DNA from: Dehalococcoidia bacterium
Lineage (GTDB): Bacteria; Chloroflexota; Dehalococcoidia; GIF9; JAUXIO01
Direction: 5' to 3'
Assembly (NCBI GenBank): GCA_030620975.1
Contig: JAUXIO010000001.1
Coordinates: 1-58,092, forward strand
Length of the DNA: 58,092 nucleotides
Within the stretch, counting starts at the first letter, position 1. Each line of letters starts with the position of its first letter. The notes below the pieces were generated by a model, which made no database searches, was not told the DNA's origin, and saw nothing but the letters and a program-made list of their open reading frames with translations. Below, piece by piece: positions 49,980-58,092 of the stretch. Position numbers and translations under genes: made by a program.

Positions 49980-51145
49980 TTTTGCCGAAAAGCCTCTTTA
50001 ATGCTGGTTAAAGTCTCGGGCTCGCTGAGAACATCAACTGCGGTCATGGCCATTGCTTTAGCTGCATCTACTAGCGCGGCGTGGCCGGCTTCTGATGCGG
50101 CCGCCTTGGCAAATTCAGGTGTGTGCGTTGATACTTCGTCTGGGGCGATGGTCACTGAGGCGTGAATGCTGGGCACTAGTTGACTGACGTTACCCATATC
50201 TGTGCTGCCAAAGCCAAAGCGAGTTTCGTAGGGCTCTATCTTTCTTCCCAAGGATTCCAAGTTGTGGCTGAACAACTGAGCTAGAACTGGATTATTGTTC
50301 ATTGGTGCGTAGGTTTTGTCTCCCCACTCATATTTGAGTTGGGCTCCAGTAGCTAAAGATGCCCCGATAAAGCAGTCTAATAATTTTTCTTTTAGCTCCT
50401 CAAGGTAGGCGCTGTCCTCGGCGCGGACTAGAAATTTGGCAGCACTATGGGCTGGCACCACATTAGCCGCTTTACCGCCATCGGTAATGATGCCGTGGAT
50501 GCGTGCTTTCTCCCTTATCTGTTGGCGAAGAGAGTTTATGGCAGTAAAGGCCATAATCATAGCTTCTAGAGCATTGATGCCTTTGTGGGGTTGAGCTGCG
50601 GCATGAGCCGACTTGCCAATAAACTCAACACAGAGGGGTATACAGGCTAGCGTTTGGGTGGTCGCCATATTCCGTGTCCCTGGATGTACCATCATGGCTA
50701 TATCTACTTTATCGAAGGCTCCTCTTTCTACCATTATTATCTTACCTCCAAAAAGCTCCTCGCCCGGGGTGCCCAGGATTAAGATGCTGCCTCCAACTTG
50801 GTCAATGGCGACCTTGCTGGCAATCCCAGCCCCAATTGCCGAGCTGGCTATTATATTGTGACCGCAGCCATGCCCAAGTTCAGGCAGGGCGTCATATTCG
50901 GCAACTAGAGCAATTAGCGGTTTACCACTGCCATATATGCCTCGAAATGCCGTCTTTAAACCGGTTATACCTCTTTCTACTCGGAAGCCATTTTTTTCAA
51001 TATAGTCACTTAGCCAAGCTGCTGCTTTCCTTTCCTGTAAACCTAGCTCGGGATTGGCATGAATCTTTAGGCTTAGTTCAATAAGCTCTTGATGGCGAAG
51101 ATTTACTTGCTCCTTTACTTTTGTCTTTAATTCTTCCTTTTTCAA
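49976..51145 (-). CDS. M20 family amidohydrolase/peptidase
   Basis: ALPELGHGCGHN metal-binding region, GTPGEE, and M20D-like length (389 aa). Confidence 0.85.
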   Translation of the reverse strand: MKKEELKTKVKEQVNLRHQELIELSLKIHANPELGLQERKAAAWLSDYIEKNGFRVERGITGLKTAFRGIYGSGKPLIALVAEYDALPELGHGCGHNIIASSAIGAGIASKVAIDQVGGSILILGTPGEELFGGKIIMVERGAFDKVDIAMMVHPGTRNMATTQTLACIPLCVEFIGKSAHAAAQPHKGINALEAMIMAFTAINSLRQQIREKARIHGIITDGGKAANVVPAHSAAKFLVRAEDSAYLEELKEKLLDCFIGASLATGAQLKYEWGDKTYAPMNNNPVLAQLFSHNLESLGRKIEPYETRFGFGSTDMGNVSQLVPSIHASVTIAPDEVSTHTPEFAKAAASEAGHAALVDAAKAMAMTAVDVLSEPETLTSIKEAFRQK

Positions 51146-51292
51146 TCGCTTGCCCCTTTCATACAGATATTATAACCCATGGAGTATGAGGGCTTCTAGG
51201 CTAGGAATGGTGAGATAATGGTATCCAGCTTGACACTAAAGCCGTCTGAACTTATAATAAGCCCAGTTTTTATCTTTGCTGTGAAAATAGAA

Positions 51293-51850
51293 ATGAGTAG
51301 TGGGCAAAAGGGAGCTAATAAAGACTCCTTGTGGAGTGGGATAAATGTTGCCCGATTGCTGGAGGAGCCCGTCGGTTCGACCCGCAATTATCATATGGAT
51401 GAATCTATTGGGGAAGAAACCATGCACTTCATCAAGGGAGAGGTAACCTTGACTCGTAGCAGTCAAGGTATTTTAATGCAGGGAACATTAACAGCTCATG
51501 TAGAGCTGGTCTGCAGTCGCTGCCTGAATGCCTTCGATCTTCCCATTAATTTCAATATTGCTGAAGAATTCTTACCTACGTTTGATGTGCATACTGGTTT
51601 GCCGCTAGCTTTACCTGAGGAGTGTGATAACCTCACTATTGACGAGGACCACGTTCTTGATTTTGGTGAAGTGGTACGTCAGTATATTTTACTCAATATG
51701 CCCATGAGGCCGCTTTGCCATCCTGATTGTGCTGGATTTTACTTATCCGCTGACCATAGTCCCGGTCGAAATTCACATGAAACTGAGCGTTGTGATTATC
51801 GGTGGTCGAAACTCAAACAACTGAATTTGGACAGGCGAGGTAAAGTTTAA
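51293..51850 (+). CDS. yceD: YceD/DUF177 family protein
   Basis: Conserved position immediately upstream of rpmF. CSRCL...C-terminal CHPDC pattern. The start is uncertain (the track ORF begins at 51218). Confidence 0.7.
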   Translation: MSSGQKGANKDSLWSGINVARLLEEPVGSTRNYHMDESIGEETMHFIKGEVTLTRSSQGILMQGTLTAHVELVCSRCLNAFDLPINFNIAEEFLPTFDVHTGLPLALPEECDNLTIDEDHVLDFGEVVRQYILLNMPMRPLCHPDCAGFYLSADHSPGRNSHETERCDYRWSKLKQLNLDRRGKV

Positions 51851-52051
51851 GTGTCACCTGTACCTAAGAGAAAATATGCTAAAGCCCGCCAGGGGAAAAG
51901 GCGCAGTCATCTTCATTTAAGCCTGCCTCCATTGGATGAGTGTCCCCAGTGTCACAGCCCCAAGCTGGCTCATCGCGTTTGCCCCACTTGTGGTAGCTAT
52001 GCTGGTAGGGAAGTTATTCGGATCAAAAGTCCAAAGAAAAAAGCTAGCTGA
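51851..52051 (+). CDS. rpmF: 50S ribosomal protein L32
   Basis: PVPKRKYAKARQGKRRSH and a CPQC...CPTCG zinc ribbon. GTG start. Confidence 0.9.
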   Translation: MSPVPKRKYAKARQGKRRSHLHLSLPPLDECPQCHSPKLAHRVCPTCGSYAGREVIRIKSPKKKAS

Positions 52052-52083
52052 TGTTTTTGGGGAGTTGCTGAAGGAGGCAAATT

Positions 52084-53031
52084 TTGCTTAGGACCTCCCT
52101 TTGTGATCTGCTGGGCATCGAGTACCCAATCATTCAAGGGGGGATGGCACATCTGGGGACGGCAGAACTCGTATCAGCCGTGTCTAACGCTGGTGGGTTA
52201 GGTGTGATTGGTAGTGCGGCTGCTTCTCCAGATTGGTTGACAAAGCAAATCCACTTGACTAGGGACAGGACCGATAAGCCATTTGCCGTGAATATTGTGT
52301 TGCTAGCTCCTTTCCTTGAAGAGAATCTAGAAGTTGCTTTAAAGGAGAGGGTAGGTATTGTCATTTTTGGTGGGGGTAACCCGAGCGCTTATATTCATAA
52401 ATTGAAAGAGGCTGGAGTGAAGGTGATATCGGTTATTTCCAGTGTAGCTTTGGCTAGACGTTTGGAAAGATTTGGAGTGGATGGCATCATTGCTGAAGGA
52501 ATGGAGGCGGGTGGGCACATTGGTGAGGTCACTACTATGGCTTTGGTTCCCCAGGTGGCAGACGGTGTTAGGCTGCCGGTAGTAGCTGCGGGTGGGATTG
52601 CTGATGGTCGAGGCATGGCAGCTGCTTTGGCCTTGGGAGCTCAAGGCGTGCAGATGGGGACGCGTTTTATTTGTTCCGAAGAATGCATTGCTCATCTCGG
52701 GTTTAAAGAGCGAATTCTTAAAGCGCATGACAGAGCTACTGTAGTTACTGGGGGAACGACGGGGCATCCAGTACGTTGTCTTGAAAATAAGGTGACTCGC
52801 CAGTTTATTGCGCTGGAGCGGGATGGGGTGGCTAAGGAGGTATTGGAGGAATTTGGCATGGGCAGGTTGTATTTGGGAGTCATTGAGGGTAATATGGATG
52901 AAGGCTCGCTTATGGCGGGGCAGATAGCTGGATTGATAAGGGGAATAAAGCCAGCTAAGGCTATTGTTGAGGATATTGTGGCTGAAGCCGAGGAAGTGAT
53001 TAATAAACTTGAGGAGGTAGTTCATGGTTGA
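52084..53031 (+). CDS. fabK: enoyl-ACP reductase FabK-type (NPD/nitronate monooxygenase fold flavoprotein)
   Basis: LLGIEYPIIQGGMA, AEGMEAGGHIG, and AAGGIADGRG. TTG start with SD AAGGAGG. Confidence 0.75.
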   Translation: MLRTSLCDLLGIEYPIIQGGMAHLGTAELVSAVSNAGGLGVIGSAAASPDWLTKQIHLTRDRTDKPFAVNIVLLAPFLEENLEVALKERVGIVIFGGGNPSAYIHKLKEAGVKVISVISSVALARRLERFGVDGIIAEGMEAGGHIGEVTTMALVPQVADGVRLPVVAAGGIADGRGMAAALALGAQGVQMGTRFICSEECIAHLGFKERILKAHDRATVVTGGTTGHPVRCLENKVTRQFIALERDGVAKEVLEEFGMGRLYLGVIEGNMDEGSLMAGQIAGLIRGIKPAKAIVEDIVAEAEEVINKLEEVVHG

Positions 53032-53968
53032 GCAAGTAAAGGTTGCCTATGTGTTCCCAGGACAGAGTTCATGGGCAGTTGGTATGGGGCTTGATATTGT
53101 CGTTCACTATGCTTCTGCAAGGGAGGTTTTTGATGAGGTGGATAGGGTTTTAGGTTTTCCTCTCTCGAGATTGTGTTTTGAAGGCCCTGAGGAAGAGCTC
53201 ATTCAGACCTTCAATATCCAGCCAGCGGTGTTGACAACAAGTATTGCTTGTCTTAAAGCTGCCCAAGAGGTCAGTGGCGAAAGCATGCCAGCGGCTACTT
53301 TTCTTGCCGGGCATGGTTTGGGTGAGTATGCGGCACTGGTAGCTGGCAATGCGGTTAGCTTGGCTGATGCAGTGTGTCTTGTTCGAGAGCGGGGGCGGCT
53401 GATGCATGAGGCTGGTCGCAGAAAACCAGGGGGAATGTTGACCATAGTAGGCCTTAAACAAGATATTGTTGAGTATATTTGCCTTAATACCGGCACCACG
53501 ATTTCCAATATTAATTCTCCGAGCCAGATTGTGATTAGCGGCGCCGAGGACAATCTGACTAAAGCGTGGAGGCTGGCTCGGACAAAGGGCGCGCGCCGCA
53601 TTATCCCTCTAAAGGTGAGCGGTGCTTTTTATTCTTCTATGATGGAGCCGGCCACGGCTGGCTTGAGTGAAGCTATCTCAAGTTTTACCTTTCGTGATTC
53701 GTCAGTCCCAATCGTAGCTAATGTCACTGCTCAGCCGGTGACCGATGTCAAGTCAATAAAGGAGGAACTGGTCAGTCAGCTATATCGTTGCATCCAATGG
53801 CGAGATTCCATAGAGAACATGATAGCTAGAGGGGTAACTAACTTTTTTGAGATAGGTCATGGCGAAGTTCTTACCGGCCTAATCAAGCAAATTAGTCCCG
53901 GGGTGCGGACTTTCAATGTCGGAGACTTGACCAGCGTTAGAGAAATAGCAAAGTGGCGGAGGATGTGA
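53024..53968 (+). CDS. fabD: malonyl-CoA:ACP transacylase homologue with a substituted catalytic dyad
   Basis: Overall FabD pattern (FPGQ..., RERGRLM, IQW, GHGEVLTGL). However, GHSLGE reads GHGLGE (codon 53315-53317) and GAFHS reads GAFYS (codon 53630-53632). Confidence 0.75.
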   Translation: MVEQVKVAYVFPGQSSWAVGMGLDIVVHYASAREVFDEVDRVLGFPLSRLCFEGPEEELIQTFNIQPAVLTTSIACLKAAQEVSGESMPAATFLAGHGLGEYAALVAGNAVSLADAVCLVRERGRLMHEAGRRKPGGMLTIVGLKQDIVEYICLNTGTTISNINSPSQIVISGAEDNLTKAWRLARTKGARRIIPLKVSGAFYSSMMEPATAGLSEAISSFTFRDSSVPIVANVTAQPVTDVKSIKEELVSQLYRCIQWRDSIENMIARGVTNFFEIGHGEVLTGLIKQISPGVRTFNVGDLTSVREIAKWRRM

Positions 53969-53979
53969 CTGCATGACTG

Positions 53980-54858
53980 ATGTTAAGGTCGAGTTCACCC
54001 ACCAAAACTGTTCGTAAATGTAAGCATTGTGGAAGAGAATCGCCTCTCATTTCTTAAAGCTTGGGGATGTGCCTAGATTACATTCGGCGTCATCTTGAGG
54101 AAGTCAGTTCAGATATTTATGAGGCTCATGGCAAGTCGCGGGAGGTTTTTAAGTTACCGGCTCGGCCGCCAAAAGCAGAAGATGGCATAAGTTGTCATCT
54201 TTGCCTTAATGAGTGTCGTCTCCTTGAAGGCGATGTAAGTTATTGCGGCTTGCGTGGCGTTGAAGGTGGTAAGCTTGTTGGTGCCTCTGCAGAGTTAGGT
54301 AATGTGAGCTGGTATCATGACCCTTTACCGACGAATTGCGTCGCCGATTGTGTTAGCCCTTTACAATTAGCTGAGGCCGTTGATGAGCATACGTCGTGCA
54401 TCTGTTGGGAAACCAATGGTTCAATGCAGCCAGCTTTGCTTAAGCAAGCTGCCGAACTTTCTCTCGATTCAGGTGGCTGTATTAAGTTTGATCTCAAGGC
54501 TTGGGATGAGGGACTGCATATTGCCCTTTGTGGGGTGAGTAATAAAAGAACTTTTGAGAACTTCCGCCTTTTGGCTGGTTATATTGAGAGAAGACTCTCT
54601 CCGCCCTTCCTAGTAGCTAGCACTCTGCTTATCCCTGGCTATGTGGATAGGGAAGAAGTGTCTGAGATTGCCACTTTTATCTCCTCGTTGGACGCAAGTA
54701 TTCCCTATGCTCTTCTGGCATTTCATCCTGATTTCCTAATGGCGGATTTACCAGCCACATCGCTACATCATGCCCAGGAGTGCTTGGAGGCAGCTAAGGC
54801 TGCTGGGTTAAAGCGAGTGCGTTTGGGCAACATCCATTTGCCAGGGAACAATTATTAG
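53980..54858 (+). pseudogene. radical-SAM activase-like gene, decayed (in-frame stop, CX3CX2C segment absent)
   Basis: The reading from the ATG at 53980 (MLRSSSPTKTVRKCKHCGRESPLIS) hits an in-frame TAA at 54055-54057 and then continues in the same frame as SLGMCLDYIRR. The body keeps the family's flanks (SWYHDPLPTNCVAD ... LIPGYVD ... FHPDF...GNIHL). No CX3CX2C motif is present anywhere. Confidence 0.6.
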
Positions 54859-54859
54859 A

Positions 54860-55303
54860 ATGGCTGGCAGCAGGCGAAAAGCTAGGGTTATTGCCCTTCA
54901 GACGCTTTATGAGATTGAGTATGTGGACCATGAGCCACGGGAAATTCTAAGTCGGTTAGTGAAGGAGAAGGCTTTACCGGAGGAGGCGGCTAGCTTCGCT
55001 CAAGAACTTGTCAGCGGAGTTCTTCAGAATAGGCAGAAACTTGATGATGTTATTGGTAGATTTACCCTCTCTTTTTCAGTGGAGCAAATGGCTGCCATTG
55101 ATAAGAGCATCCTTCGCATTGCTATTTTCGAAGTTTTATTTGATAATAAAGTTCCAATCAAAGTCGCCATCAATGAAGCTGTAGAGTTAGCCAAAGCTTT
55201 TGGCAGCGACAACTCTCCGAAGTTTGTTAACGGAGTTTTAGGTTCAGTAGTTGGTGCAGTTCCAGCGAGTGAGAAAGAACGAAGTAATGAAAGGAAAGAG
55301 TGA
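54860..55303 (+). CDS. nusB: transcription antitermination factor NusB
   Basis: [16 protein letters not shown]... and the [13 protein letters not shown] pattern. 147 aa. Confidence 0.9.
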
Positions 55304-55583
55304 ACTGATTGGTGGAGATGAGAAGTTGGCAACTATTTTTGAGCGGTTGAAGAGGATAATCGTAGACCAACTGGGAGTTGATGAAGCTCAAGTGGTGCCT
55401 TCAACTTCTTTTGCCAAGGACCTCAATGTTGATTCTTCAGAATTCGCCGAGCTCATCATGGCCATAGAGGAGGAATTTAGCGGCTCGGGAAGGAAGCCTG
55501 AAATACCAGATGAGGATGTTGAGAGGATTACCACCGTTCAGGATGCCATTGATTATCTCCGGGACTGTGGCATAGAAGATTAG
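55287..55583 (+). CDS. acpP: acyl carrier protein
   Basis: [40 protein letters not shown], with the DS phosphopantetheine site present. The ATG at 55287 overlaps the nusB end by 17 nt. It has a small SGSGRKP insertion relative to typical ACPs. Confidence 0.8.
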
Positions 55584-55752
55584 GTGGGAACAATGGGAGA
55601 AGGTATATTTAGAGAGAGTAAATGTTTCTAGGAATTGTTTTAAGGTGTTGTTTTTAGCATTATTAATGTGCTAAAATGTCTATTTGGTTTAATACCTTGT
55701 GCAGAGAGATTAGTTTGGGGACATAATACAGTTAGTTTAAGGAGGTTTGTTT

Positions 55753-57723
55753 ATGGCAGATGAAAAAATTATTACTTCGATGATGGAGGAGAAGCGCGTT
55801 TTTCCTCCTCCAAAGGAGCTCAGCGAGAAGGCCTATATTAAGAGCATGGATGAATACAAGAAAATCTACAAGGAGTCCATTGAGAATCCGGAGAAGTTCT
55901 GGGGCGAGATGGCTGAGCAGTTAGACTGGTATAAGAAGTGGGATAAGGTATTAGTTGAGGACTTTGTCGAGGGCAAACATGAATGGTTTGTGGGTGGCAA
56001 GCTAAATGTTAGCTATAACTGTCTTGACCGCCACTTAAAGACTTGGCGCAAGAACAAGGCTGCCCTTATTTGGGAGGGTGAGCCGGAGGGTGAGAGCAAA
56101 ACCTATACCTATCAACAGCTTCACTATGAAGTGTGCAAGTTTGCCAATGTTTTGAAGAAATTTGGCGTGAAGAAGGGCGATCGGGTTTCTATTTACTTGC
56201 CCATGATTCCCGAGTTAGCCATTGCGATGCTTGCCTGTGCCCGAATAGGGGCAATGCACAGCGTGGTTTTTGGTGGCTTCAGTGCCGAGGCACTCAGGGA
56301 TAGAATGCTGGATGGCGGCTCCAAAATTCTCATCTGCGGCGATGGTTATTGGCGCAATGGGAGGGTGGTCAACAGTAAAGCTAATGCAGACGCAGCTATG
56401 GAGCAGTGCCCTGATGTGAAAGATTGTATTGTTGTTAAGAGAATGGGCAACGAAGCTAATATGAAGGAAGGGCGTGATGTGTGGTGGCATGAGCAGGTGC
56501 TGGCTGAAGATATCAAGCCCGAGTGCGAGCCAGAGGTAATGGATTCTGAAGACCCATTGTTTATCCTCTATACCAGCGGCAGCACTGGCAAGCCCAAGGG
56601 AGTTCTTCATACTTCGGCCGGTTATCTTCTCTTCTGCTATCAGAATTTCAAGTGGATATTTGATATAAAGGATGAGGATACCTTCTGGTGCACTGCGGAT
56701 ATTGGCTGGGTAACCGGGCACAGCTTTATCGTTTATGGTCCTTTGGCATTTGGTGGTACGAGCTTAATGTTTGAAGGCGTGCCCTCGTTCCCCAAACCGG
56801 ACCGGTTCTGGGAGATAATAGAGAAATACAAGGTGAATGTTTTCTACACTGCACCGACTGCACTGCGGTCCATAATGAGGGAAGGTGACGAATGGCCCAA
56901 CAAGCGAGACCTCTCTTCGCTGCGCATATTGGGAACTGTGGGTGAGCCTATAAATCCTGAAGCCTGGATGTGGTATTACAAGGTGATTGGCAAGGAGAAG
57001 TGCCCGATTGTGGATACCTGGTGGCAGACGGAGACCGGCGGTATACTAATCACTCCTTTACCCGGCGCCATAGCAACTAAGCCCGGTTCAGCTACTGTGC
57101 CCTTCCCTGGAGTTGATGTTCAAATCCTGAGGGAGGATGGTACACCCGCCGGTGTTAATGAAGGTGGTTATCTGGTTATCAAGCGGCCGTGGCCGGGGCT
57201 GATGCGTCGAGTTTTTGGCGAACCTGAAAGGTTCAAGAATACGTACTTTGTCCAATTCCCTGGAGTATATACTACAGGTGATGGCGCTCGAAAGGATGAA
57301 GATGGCTACTACTGGTTGATGGGGCGGATAGATGATGTCATCAATGTGTCTGGTCACCGCATTGGAAGTGCTGAAGTGGAGAGCGCACTGGTATCCCATG
57401 AGAAAGTTGCCGAGGCAGCGATAGTGGGCATGCCACATGACATTAAAGGGCAGGGCATTTATGCCTTTGTTACCCTTAAGGTTGGCGAAGCCAAGGATGA
57501 GGCGTTGAAGAAAGCCCTGGTGGCTCACGTGCGTAAGGAGATTGGTCCCATTGCTTCGCCGGATAAGATTCAATTTGCCGATGGTTTACCCAAGACCAGA
57601 AGTGGCAAGATTATGAGGAGAATACTGGTGAAGATCGCTGCTGGTGACATTAGTGCTATTGGCGATACCAGCACTTTGGCTGACCCTTCGGTGGTAGATG
57701 ATCTGGTTAAGCATAGAGTGTAA
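55753..57723 (+). CDS. acs: acetyl-CoA synthetase (AMP-forming)
   Basis: [44 protein letters not shown], and [11 protein letters not shown]. About 656 aa. ATG at 55753 with SD AAGGAGG. Confidence 0.95.
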
Positions 57724-57751
57724 GGTAGTGAGGGTGAGTTAACAAGAAATA

Positions 57752-57779
57752 TTAGAGGGGGTTTTGAAACCCCCTCTAA
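57752..57779 (+). terminator. strong hairpin after acs (terminator candidate, weak U-tract)
   Basis: Perfect 12-bp stem ttagagggggtt / aaccccctctaa with a 4-nt loop. Only TT follows. Confidence 0.55.
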
Positions 57780-57877
57780 TTATATAAGTGGGGCTATTAA
57801 GAAAATTTGGGACAATAAAGACAAATCTAGAACCAGGGTAAAACTAAAACAGCATAAATTACTTGAGGAGGTGAATC

Positions 57878-58092
57878 TTGGCGACAGCGACTAATAGATG
57901 GAATATCATTATCAGTGGATTCCTGCTGAATCTGATGCTGGGAATCGTATATGCATGGAGTGTTTTTGTTCGCCCGCTGATGGAAACTTACGGCTGGACA
58001 AAGACAGTAGCCACCTTGCCATTCACGATATTTCTGGTAGTTTTTGCCCTGATGATGATTCCTGCAGGAAGGGCTCAGGATAGAATGGGACC
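57878..58092 (+). CDS. MFS transporter, oxalate/formate antiporter (OFA)-like, N-terminal part (3' end outside window)
   Basis: A TTG start 7 nt after SD GAGGAGG gives (M)ATATNRWNIIISGFLLNLMLGIVYAWSVFVRPLMETYGWTKTVATLPFTIFLVVFALMMIPAGRAQDRMG. This is hydrophobic TM1-TM2 with an OFA-like YAWSVF..PL motif. Confidence 0.65.
   Translation, partial: MATATNRWNIIISGFLLNLMLGIVYAWSVFVRPLMETYGWTKTVATLPFTIFLVVFALMMIPAGRAQDRMG

Follow-up and report, generated by a model that had tools for sequence, protein, structure and literature searches.

The FabD-like protein and its motifs

The window analysed here is a stretch of 58,092 nucleotides (positions 1 to 58,092 of the forward strand) of contig JAUXIO010000001.1, from the assembly GCA_030620975.1 of a Dehalococcoidia bacterium (GIF9; JAUXIO01) whose genome of 1.02 Mb in 71 contigs is 94.65% complete. 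Near its right-hand end lie, in this order, yceD, rpmF, a gene for a FabK-type enoyl reductase, an open reading frame (ORF; 53024–53968) resembling fabD, the gene for malonyl-coenzyme A (CoA):acyl carrier protein (ACP) transacylase, the remains of a radical-SAM gene, nusB and an ACP gene (Table 1). The FabD-like product will be referred to as FabD*. The initial annotation had described it as a FabD homologue in which both residues of the catalytic dyad are replaced, and had offered three explanations: a recently inactivated gene in a lipid-scavenging organism, a non-catalytic ACP-binding role, or sequence errors. From the evidence set out below, we propose that FabD* is probably a conserved FabD-derived pseudoenzyme with a non-catalytic role, most likely the binding of ACP.

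Window proteins were searched against the profiles TIGR00128 (fabD; cut-off 260.9 bits), TIGR03151 (cut-off 453.1 bits), PF00698, PF02620, PF03060 and PF01029. FabD* scores 295.8 bits with the first of these and 104 bits with PF00698, and its homology to the family is full-length, as it aligns end to end with solved FabDs (phmmer against PDB sequences, E = 2.5e-61, 36–38% identity). This alignment pairs GHGLGE of FabD* with GHSLGE, and GAFYS with the His-bearing VPSHC, and the register in which the motifs had first been read is therefore correct; the codons of GQSSW, GHGLGE and GAFYS are also as had been claimed. The oxyanion loop, canonically GQGSQ, is G13-Q14-S15-S16-W17 (53060–53074). In 109 canonical Dehalococcoidales relatives, which served as our reference for column conservation, G, Q, S and H occupy positions 15, 17, 98 and 203 in 100% of the sequences. 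Judged from these residues, FabD* lacks three defining catalytic features of the family and does not belong under the label ACP S-malonyltransferase.

Other parts of the protein are well kept. Among the 96 columns that are at least 95% identical in the canonical relatives, FabD* retains 85 and has changed 11. The malonyl-carboxylate arginine is present in FabD* as Arg123, a residue invariant across all 64 aligned relatives, and Gln14 and His97 vary little or not at all among the forms that lack the nucleophilic serine (hereafter Ser-less). The column of Thr140 has turned to Ser or Thr in other Ser-less clades as well. In E. coli FabD, K189 and R190 contact ACP Glu41 and the CoA 3'-phosphate, and Arg287 contacts ACP Asp35 and Asp38 and stacks on the CoA adenine (bioRxiv 10.1101/2020.05.15.098798); the equivalents of the basic pair, R191 and R192 of FabD*, are invariant or nearly so, and Arg287 has become Gln289. 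The AlphaFold2 model of FabD* (predicted local distance difference test, pLDDT, 92.8; predicted template-modelling score, pTM, 0.92) matches the E. coli FabD-AcpP complex 6u0j and also 1mla with a template-modelling (TM) score of 0.91 (Foldseek), so that the protein is predicted to keep the alpha/beta-hydrolase-like core and ferredoxin-like subdomain of the family. The ATG start is intact with a GAGGAGG Shine-Dalgarno sequence 8 nt upstream, and the 5' end of the gene overlaps the fabK-like gene by 8 nt.

Table 1. Features of the yceD–acp locus and altered or retained codons of the FabD* gene (window coordinates)
Feature	Position	Strand	Basis
Promoter-like site TTGACA-17-TATAAT, 12/12, ahead of yceD	51230..51258	+	Consensus match only
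yceD (DUF177), conserved first gene of the locus in other genomes examined	51218..51850	+	PF02620
rpmF (ribosomal protein L32)	51851..52051	+	ORF call, synteny
FabK-type enoyl-ACP reductase	52084..53031	+	TIGR03151 437.7 bits (cut-off 453.1), PF03060
FabD*, FabD-like putative pseudoenzyme, 314 aa	53024..53968	+	Profiles, alignment, predicted structure, dN/dS
Oxyanion-loop codons S15-S16-W17 (canonical G-S-Q)	53066..53074	+	Column comparison, codon reading
GGT, Gly98 at the nucleophile position (canonical Ser; E. coli Ser92)	53315..53317	+	Alignment, codon reading
CGG, Arg123, malonyl-carboxylate Arg of RERGRLM (E. coli Arg117), retained	53390..53392	+	Alignment, codon reading
ACC, Thr140 (canonical Ala)	53441..53443	+	Column comparison
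TAT, Tyr203 at the general-base position (canonical His; E. coli His201)	53630..53632	+	Alignment, codon reading
CAA, Gln289 at the E. coli Arg287 position	53888..53890	+	Alignment, codon reading
Decayed radical-SAM gene	53980..54858	+	Deletions, in-frame TAA, dN/dS
nusB	54860..55303	+	PF01029
Locus ACP, overlapping the end of nusB	55287..55583	+	Profile searches, codon reading

The same residues in a second strain

It had been pointed out that each dyad change needs a single base in an otherwise well-kept gene, and both are indeed single-base changes (AGT to GGT, CAT to TAT), as would be expected if errors of sequencing or assembly had been introduced into a normal fabD; however, eleven conserved columns are altered and not two. 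Moreover, a protein 97% identical to FabD* (P0002, on contig L074) carries identical GQSSW, GHGLGE and GAFYS motifs, and is encoded both in ENA ERZ26661670, on an 85-kb contig, and in Logan SRR21487742. The ENA contig is 97.7% identical to the window in DNA over 15 kb, and therefore represents a different strain. As a strain with 2.3% of its bases different has the same residues in assemblies made independently, the proposal of sequence error is refuted, and we attach practically no weight to it.

A second, canonical FabD elsewhere in the genome

The window contains no FabF, FabG, HadAB-like, AcpS or carboxyltransferase homologue detectable by tblastn, in agreement with the earlier remark that fabF and fabG lie outside it. 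A search of the rest of the genome, which the initial annotation had recommended, located a canonical set on contig 26. The FabD encoded there (336.8 bits; 53% identical to FabD*) has GQGSQ, GHSLGE, RERGRLM and GAFHT, and its neighbours are FabF (614.8 bits), FabG (348.5 bits), an ACP with the canonical DSLD motif, an acyl-CoA ligase, a carboxyltransferase, two HadAB-like hot-dog proteins and AcpS. A further FabF is encoded on contig 18. With these genes and the FabK of the window, the organism looks competent for fatty-acid synthesis by way of the contig-26 FabD, which would be the enzyme that loads ACP for this purpose. The nearest sampled relatives of the contig-26 FabD (71%) and FabG (79%) are in another Dehalococcoidales metagenome-assembled genome (MAG), at a locus with the order yceD-rpmF-fabK-fabD-fabG-nusB-acp.

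FabH above the curated cut-off is found in none of the 41 Dehalococcoidales genomes of our cross-genome survey, the window genome included, and its absence is thus an order-wide trait that is uninformative for the window. Most of the 41 genomes have FabF, often in two or three copies, though they are without FabH. The start of fatty-acid synthesis in the order must be FabH-independent. PlsX is absent from the window genome too, which at 94.65% completeness allows no conclusion for this organism.

Selection on the FabD* gene and decay of its neighbour

Between the two strains the FabD* gene shows 30 synonymous and 9 non-synonymous differences, giving a ratio of non-synonymous to synonymous substitution rates (dN/dS) of 0.086 and a pattern far from neutrality (binomial p = 4e-12). 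All nine amino-acid differences fall outside strictly conserved columns. Both strains have an uninterrupted frame, and neither the disruption nor the neutral pattern of a pseudogene is seen. FabD* is under strong purifying selection and is not a decaying gene.

The radical-SAM gene downstream provides a comparison, and the earlier description of it as decayed is borne out. Relative to homologues of about 350 residues in related genomes, this AmmeMemoRadiSam-like gene has suffered two in-frame deletions, which take out the CxxxCxxC (CSFDCLFCQNW) and GGDP regions, and an in-frame TAA at 54055–54057 is present in the window only and not in the 97% strain. With 19 synonymous against 24 non-synonymous differences its dN/dS is 0.36, and the pattern differs from that of FabD* (Fisher p = 0.003). 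Several sister genomes have lost the radical-SAM gene or keep some 54 codons of it. Synonymous divergence (dS) between the two strains is 0.10–0.15 in the FabD* gene, the radical-SAM relic and acs (55753–57723), and 0.02–0.04 in most neighbours.

One could still suppose that the FabD* gene is a young pseudogene, made redundant by the contig-26 fabD and open in frame by chance. The presence of a redundant canonical copy would fit such a history, as would the long stem of the window lineage (0.27, against 0.03–0.2 for canonical sisters) and the small size of a genome that holds other gene relics, the adjacent radical-SAM gene among them. However, the substitution pattern given above argues against neutrality, the strain differences spare the strictly conserved columns, and FabD* has kept its start codon, its Shine-Dalgarno sequence and the overlap of 8 nt with fabK. 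The true relic beside it, by contrast, shows deletions, a stop codon and a dN/dS of 0.36. The Ser-less state has also been long maintained throughout a sister family, as described below. We therefore regard a young pseudogene as very unlikely, and the suggestion of a recently inactivated gene in a lipid scavenger finds no support, given the dN/dS of 0.086, the 85 of 96 conserved columns kept and the full second set of fatty-acid synthesis genes on contig 26.

The locus and its ACP

In the other genomes examined, the best match to FabD* lies in the order yceD-rpmF-fabD-(radical SAM)-nusB-acp, often with an M20 peptidase gene adjoining; the FabD* gene occupies this ancestral Dehalococcoidales position. 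In the window these genes appear to form an operon running from the promoter-like site, which by its match to the consensus may be the operon promoter. This match lies within the beginning of the yceD ORF as set by the automatic call, and the actual start of yceD is probably near 51293, downstream of the site. No terminator-like site was found on the + strand downstream of 51659 in the scanned interval 51000–58000. The fabK-like gene has a dN/dS of 0.21 between the two strains.

The locus ACP retains the cofactor serine (TCT at 55434–55436). Its helix II departs from the canonical DLNADSLDLVEL, and reads DSSE where the canonical protein has DSLD. It shares two helix-II changes, DLNV.. and ..AEL, with Ser-less ACPs of relatives. 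Further downstream, beyond acs, the 97% strain has a major facilitator superfamily (MFS) gene and, next to it, a DegV (FakB-like fatty-acid-binding) gene (L074 16313–17173), a position that the window contig does not reach.

Recurrent loss of catalytic residues in the Dehalococcoidales

FabD* belongs to a clade, designated type A, with a C-terminal ..EIxxWRxG tail, whose canonical members are 68–72% identical to it. In a sister family of the order, here called f2, the locus FabD is Ser-less in all 17 sampled genomes except one. The nucleophile motif takes the forms GHG[SAC]GE, GHGIGA and GHD[VM]G[TI] in these proteins and the oxyanion loop GQE[SA]x, and the general-base His is kept or changed to Tyr or Asn. 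Homologues from metagenomes add further variants, together with intermediates in which the loop reads GQESY and both Ser and His are intact. Motif scans of 202 species genomes of the order detect AGHG-type motifs in 40 and AGHD-type motifs in 26, compared with 3 and 4 for reversed-pattern controls. When matches at other loci are set aside, about 60 of the 202 (about 30%) have a Ser-less form, nearly all of them f2 genomes, plus the window genome.

A tree of 166 sequences, from which the five trait columns were left out and in which support was assessed by the Shimodaira-Hasegawa-like approximate likelihood ratio test (SH-aLRT), requires at least six changes of the Ser-less state on account of its starred branches. 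FabD* and P0002 form a lineage of their own, with a stem of 0.27, that groups with canonical sisters (SH-aLRT 93), although this branch is not starred. A single origin of all Ser-less forms, that of the window included, had been left possible by a first, small tree, and is rejected on the larger one, the deep branches of which are weakly supported, because it places FabD* among canonical sisters and requires those six or more changes.

The altered positions are not scattered. Five of the 11 changed columns of FabD* coincide with those of each of three other clades that are Ser-less or altered in the oxyanion loop (hypergeometric p = 0.004, 0.009 and 0.00014); columns 15, 17 and 140 are common to all three, and columns 98, 203, 65 and 289 to one or two. 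Loss of catalytic residues from the locus FabD has happened repeatedly and has affected the same positions, with strong selection persisting throughout.

Genomes with and without fatty-acid synthesis

Among the 41 surveyed genomes, seven combine FabF with a Ser-less locus FabD, and in every one of them a second, canonical FabD is present. No second copy occurs in any of the 23 genomes whose locus FabD is canonical. The probability of this split is 1 in C(30,7), about 5e-7, a figure that ignores shared ancestry. A Ser-less FabD is never the sole FabD of a sampled genome that contains FabF. There are also 11 f2 genomes (91–99% complete) that have no FabF and in which the only FabD homologue is Ser-less. 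AcpS is absent from 10 of the 11 and PlsX from eight. In the ten without AcpS the only ACP homologue is the nusB-adjacent one, with its cofactor serine replaced (D-P-D, D-P-P, D-A-D, D-A-S and similar) and with the equivalents of Asp35, Asp38 and Glu41 kept. In these genomes, which lack fatty-acid synthesis, dN/dS is 0.03–0.09 for the counterpart of FabD* and 0.06–0.13 for the Ser-less ACP, on a par with NusB (0.07–0.20) and L32 (0.03–0.26); YceD has 0.10–0.25.

Two things may be inferred from these comparisons: a Ser-less FabD is no substitute for FabD in the synthesis of fatty acids, and, together with ACP, it has some other role that is preserved by selection. Genomes G001, G009, G012, G018, G020, G024, G032 and G036 have no FabF, AcpS or PlsX and only a Ser-less ACP (for example, L072 4247–6726). 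One f2 genome, G040 (L054 3011–9554), has the order yceD-rpmF-acp-fabF-acpS-fabK-fabD-rSAM (radical SAM)-nusB-acp, in which fabD is canonical and the last ACP is Ser-less (DLNVGPSD). Since its ACP is without the serine while its locus FabD is canonical, the order of loss differs between lineages.

Could these proteins still be enzymes, with an altered chemistry that uses Arg123, Gln14 and His97? Malonyl transfer in a ternary complex without an acyl-enzyme, decarboxylation or hydrolysis of malonyl-thioesters, or the use of another carboxy-acyl substrate might be envisaged. The near invariance of these three residues in Ser-less forms would be accounted for, as would the stereotyped and non-random change of five active-site columns and the existence of intermediates with an altered oxyanion loop and intact Ser and His; in some relatives the nucleophile is replaced by Asp, or the oxyanion loop contains Glu/Asp, residues that could in principle be catalytic. 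On the other hand, the 10 relatives without AcpS, whose sole ACP is Ser-less, have no thiol acceptor, and yet the protein is equally constrained in them. The replacement of Ser varies (Gly, Asp), as does that of His (Tyr, Asn, or none), which argues against one new mechanism, and the protein is never the only FabD where FabF is present. We consider continued catalysis unlikely, and return to a role in binding.

Discussion

FabD* combines purifying selection with homology to an active enzyme family whose essential residues are replaced in it, as expected of a pseudoenzyme. It shares with FabD/MCAT (E. coli FabD, 1MLA, 6U0J) the two-subdomain fold, FPGQ, RERGRLM, the basic pair and IQW, and is likewise encoded in a yceD-rpmF-...-acp operon. 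It differs in the changes Ser92 to Gly, His201 to Tyr, GQGSQ to GQSSW and Arg287 to Gln, in not being the working FabD of its genome, and in having Ser-less relatives that persist without FabF and mostly without AcpS. With the Ser-less FabD/ACP pairs of f2 it has in common the ancestral locus, the type A clade, the altered columns and the strong purifying selection, although its lineage lost the residues separately on the tree (by the unstarred grouping with canonical sisters), its oxyanion loop has Ser/Trp where those of f2 have Glu/Asp plus His/Lys/Arg, and its genome is competent for fatty-acid synthesis, with an ACP partner that bears the cofactor serine.

Of the three explanations first offered, a non-catalytic, ACP-binding role is the best supported, given the strong constraint, the retained fold and docking residues and the presence of a second FabD. 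As its sequence reads, FabD* would be unable to form the malonyl-Ser intermediate, and so could not load ACP by a ping-pong mechanism. The active-site pocket would be remodelled, partly by the bulkier side chains of G15S, Q17W, A140T and H203Y, which may fill the empty pocket. FabD* would then act by binding rather than catalysis, the likeliest partner being the locus ACP, whose gene lies three genes further along the same putative operon, and it may serve the same function, independent of fatty-acid synthesis, that maintains the Ser-less FabD/ACP pairs in relatives lacking that pathway. As Arg287 is replaced by Gln289 and the ACP has DSSE for DSLD, the interface between the two proteins may have shifted.

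Several points weigh against this interpretation. The ACP partner in the window still has its cofactor serine, and R289Q takes away one known contact with ACP and CoA, so that the partner and the ligand in the window genome are uncertain. With Arg123 retained, FabD* could still be able to bind a carboxylated substrate and perhaps to turn it over. The dN/dS of FabD* comes from a single pair of strains with 39 differences; its dS of 0.147 lies above that of most neighbours (0.02–0.04), and such uneven synonymous divergence could mark recombination tracts. The absence of genes from MAGs is limited by completeness (91–99% here), and the number of independent losses was taken from a quickly built tree whose only measure of support is SH-aLRT. 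Finally, FabD* forms do not exceed canonical ones in basicity, so that gain of an RNA-binding surface finds no support: Ser-less forms have a median isoelectric point (pI) of 5.8 and a net charge of -3, compared with 6.0 and -3 for canonical type A proteins.

The gene order, with YceD, L32 and NusB, points towards rRNA or ribosome biogenesis as the setting in which FabD* may work. It may be speculated that the locus FabD and ACP form an old, cofactor-free module acting with NusB, L32 and YceD in rRNA transcription or ribosome assembly, and that FabD* has specialised convergently, freed by the second fab cluster, although we think this a rather improbable extension. There are parallels in organelles. 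Human mitochondrial MCAT is an assembly factor of the small mitoribosomal subunit that binds rRNA h31/h42 (Harper et al. 2022, PMC9892005), and is thus a FabD fold with a second, non-lipid role, as might be envisaged for a gene lying among yceD, rpmF and nusB; however, MCAT keeps its catalytic residues, and FabD* is tied to ribosomes by gene order alone. The mitochondrial ACP of Plasmodium lacks the phosphopantetheine serine and is essential through Isd11-Nfs1 binding after loss of type II fatty-acid synthesis (FAS II) (Falekun et al. 2021, PMC8547962). A cofactor-free part of FAS II is retained there, as are the Ser-less ACP and FabD* forms in Dehalococcoidales without the pathway, although the Plasmodium case concerns a eukaryotic organelle and ACP only, and the ACP of the window keeps its serine. 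Our search of the literature found no description of a Ser-less pseudoenzyme derived from FabD.

Databases label these proteins as ACP S-malonyltransferase, and metabolic reconstructions that take FabD or ACP as a sign of fatty-acid synthesis will go wrong for genomes that carry the Ser-less forms. The window genome represents an intermediate, with a putatively dead FabD beside a full FAS II gene set and a serine-bearing ACP. The retention of the pair without FabF, and mostly without AcpS and PlsX, indicates that the FabD fold and ACP have a lipid-independent function in free-living bacteria, a finding that ties in with the moonlighting known for mitochondrial MCAT and ACP.

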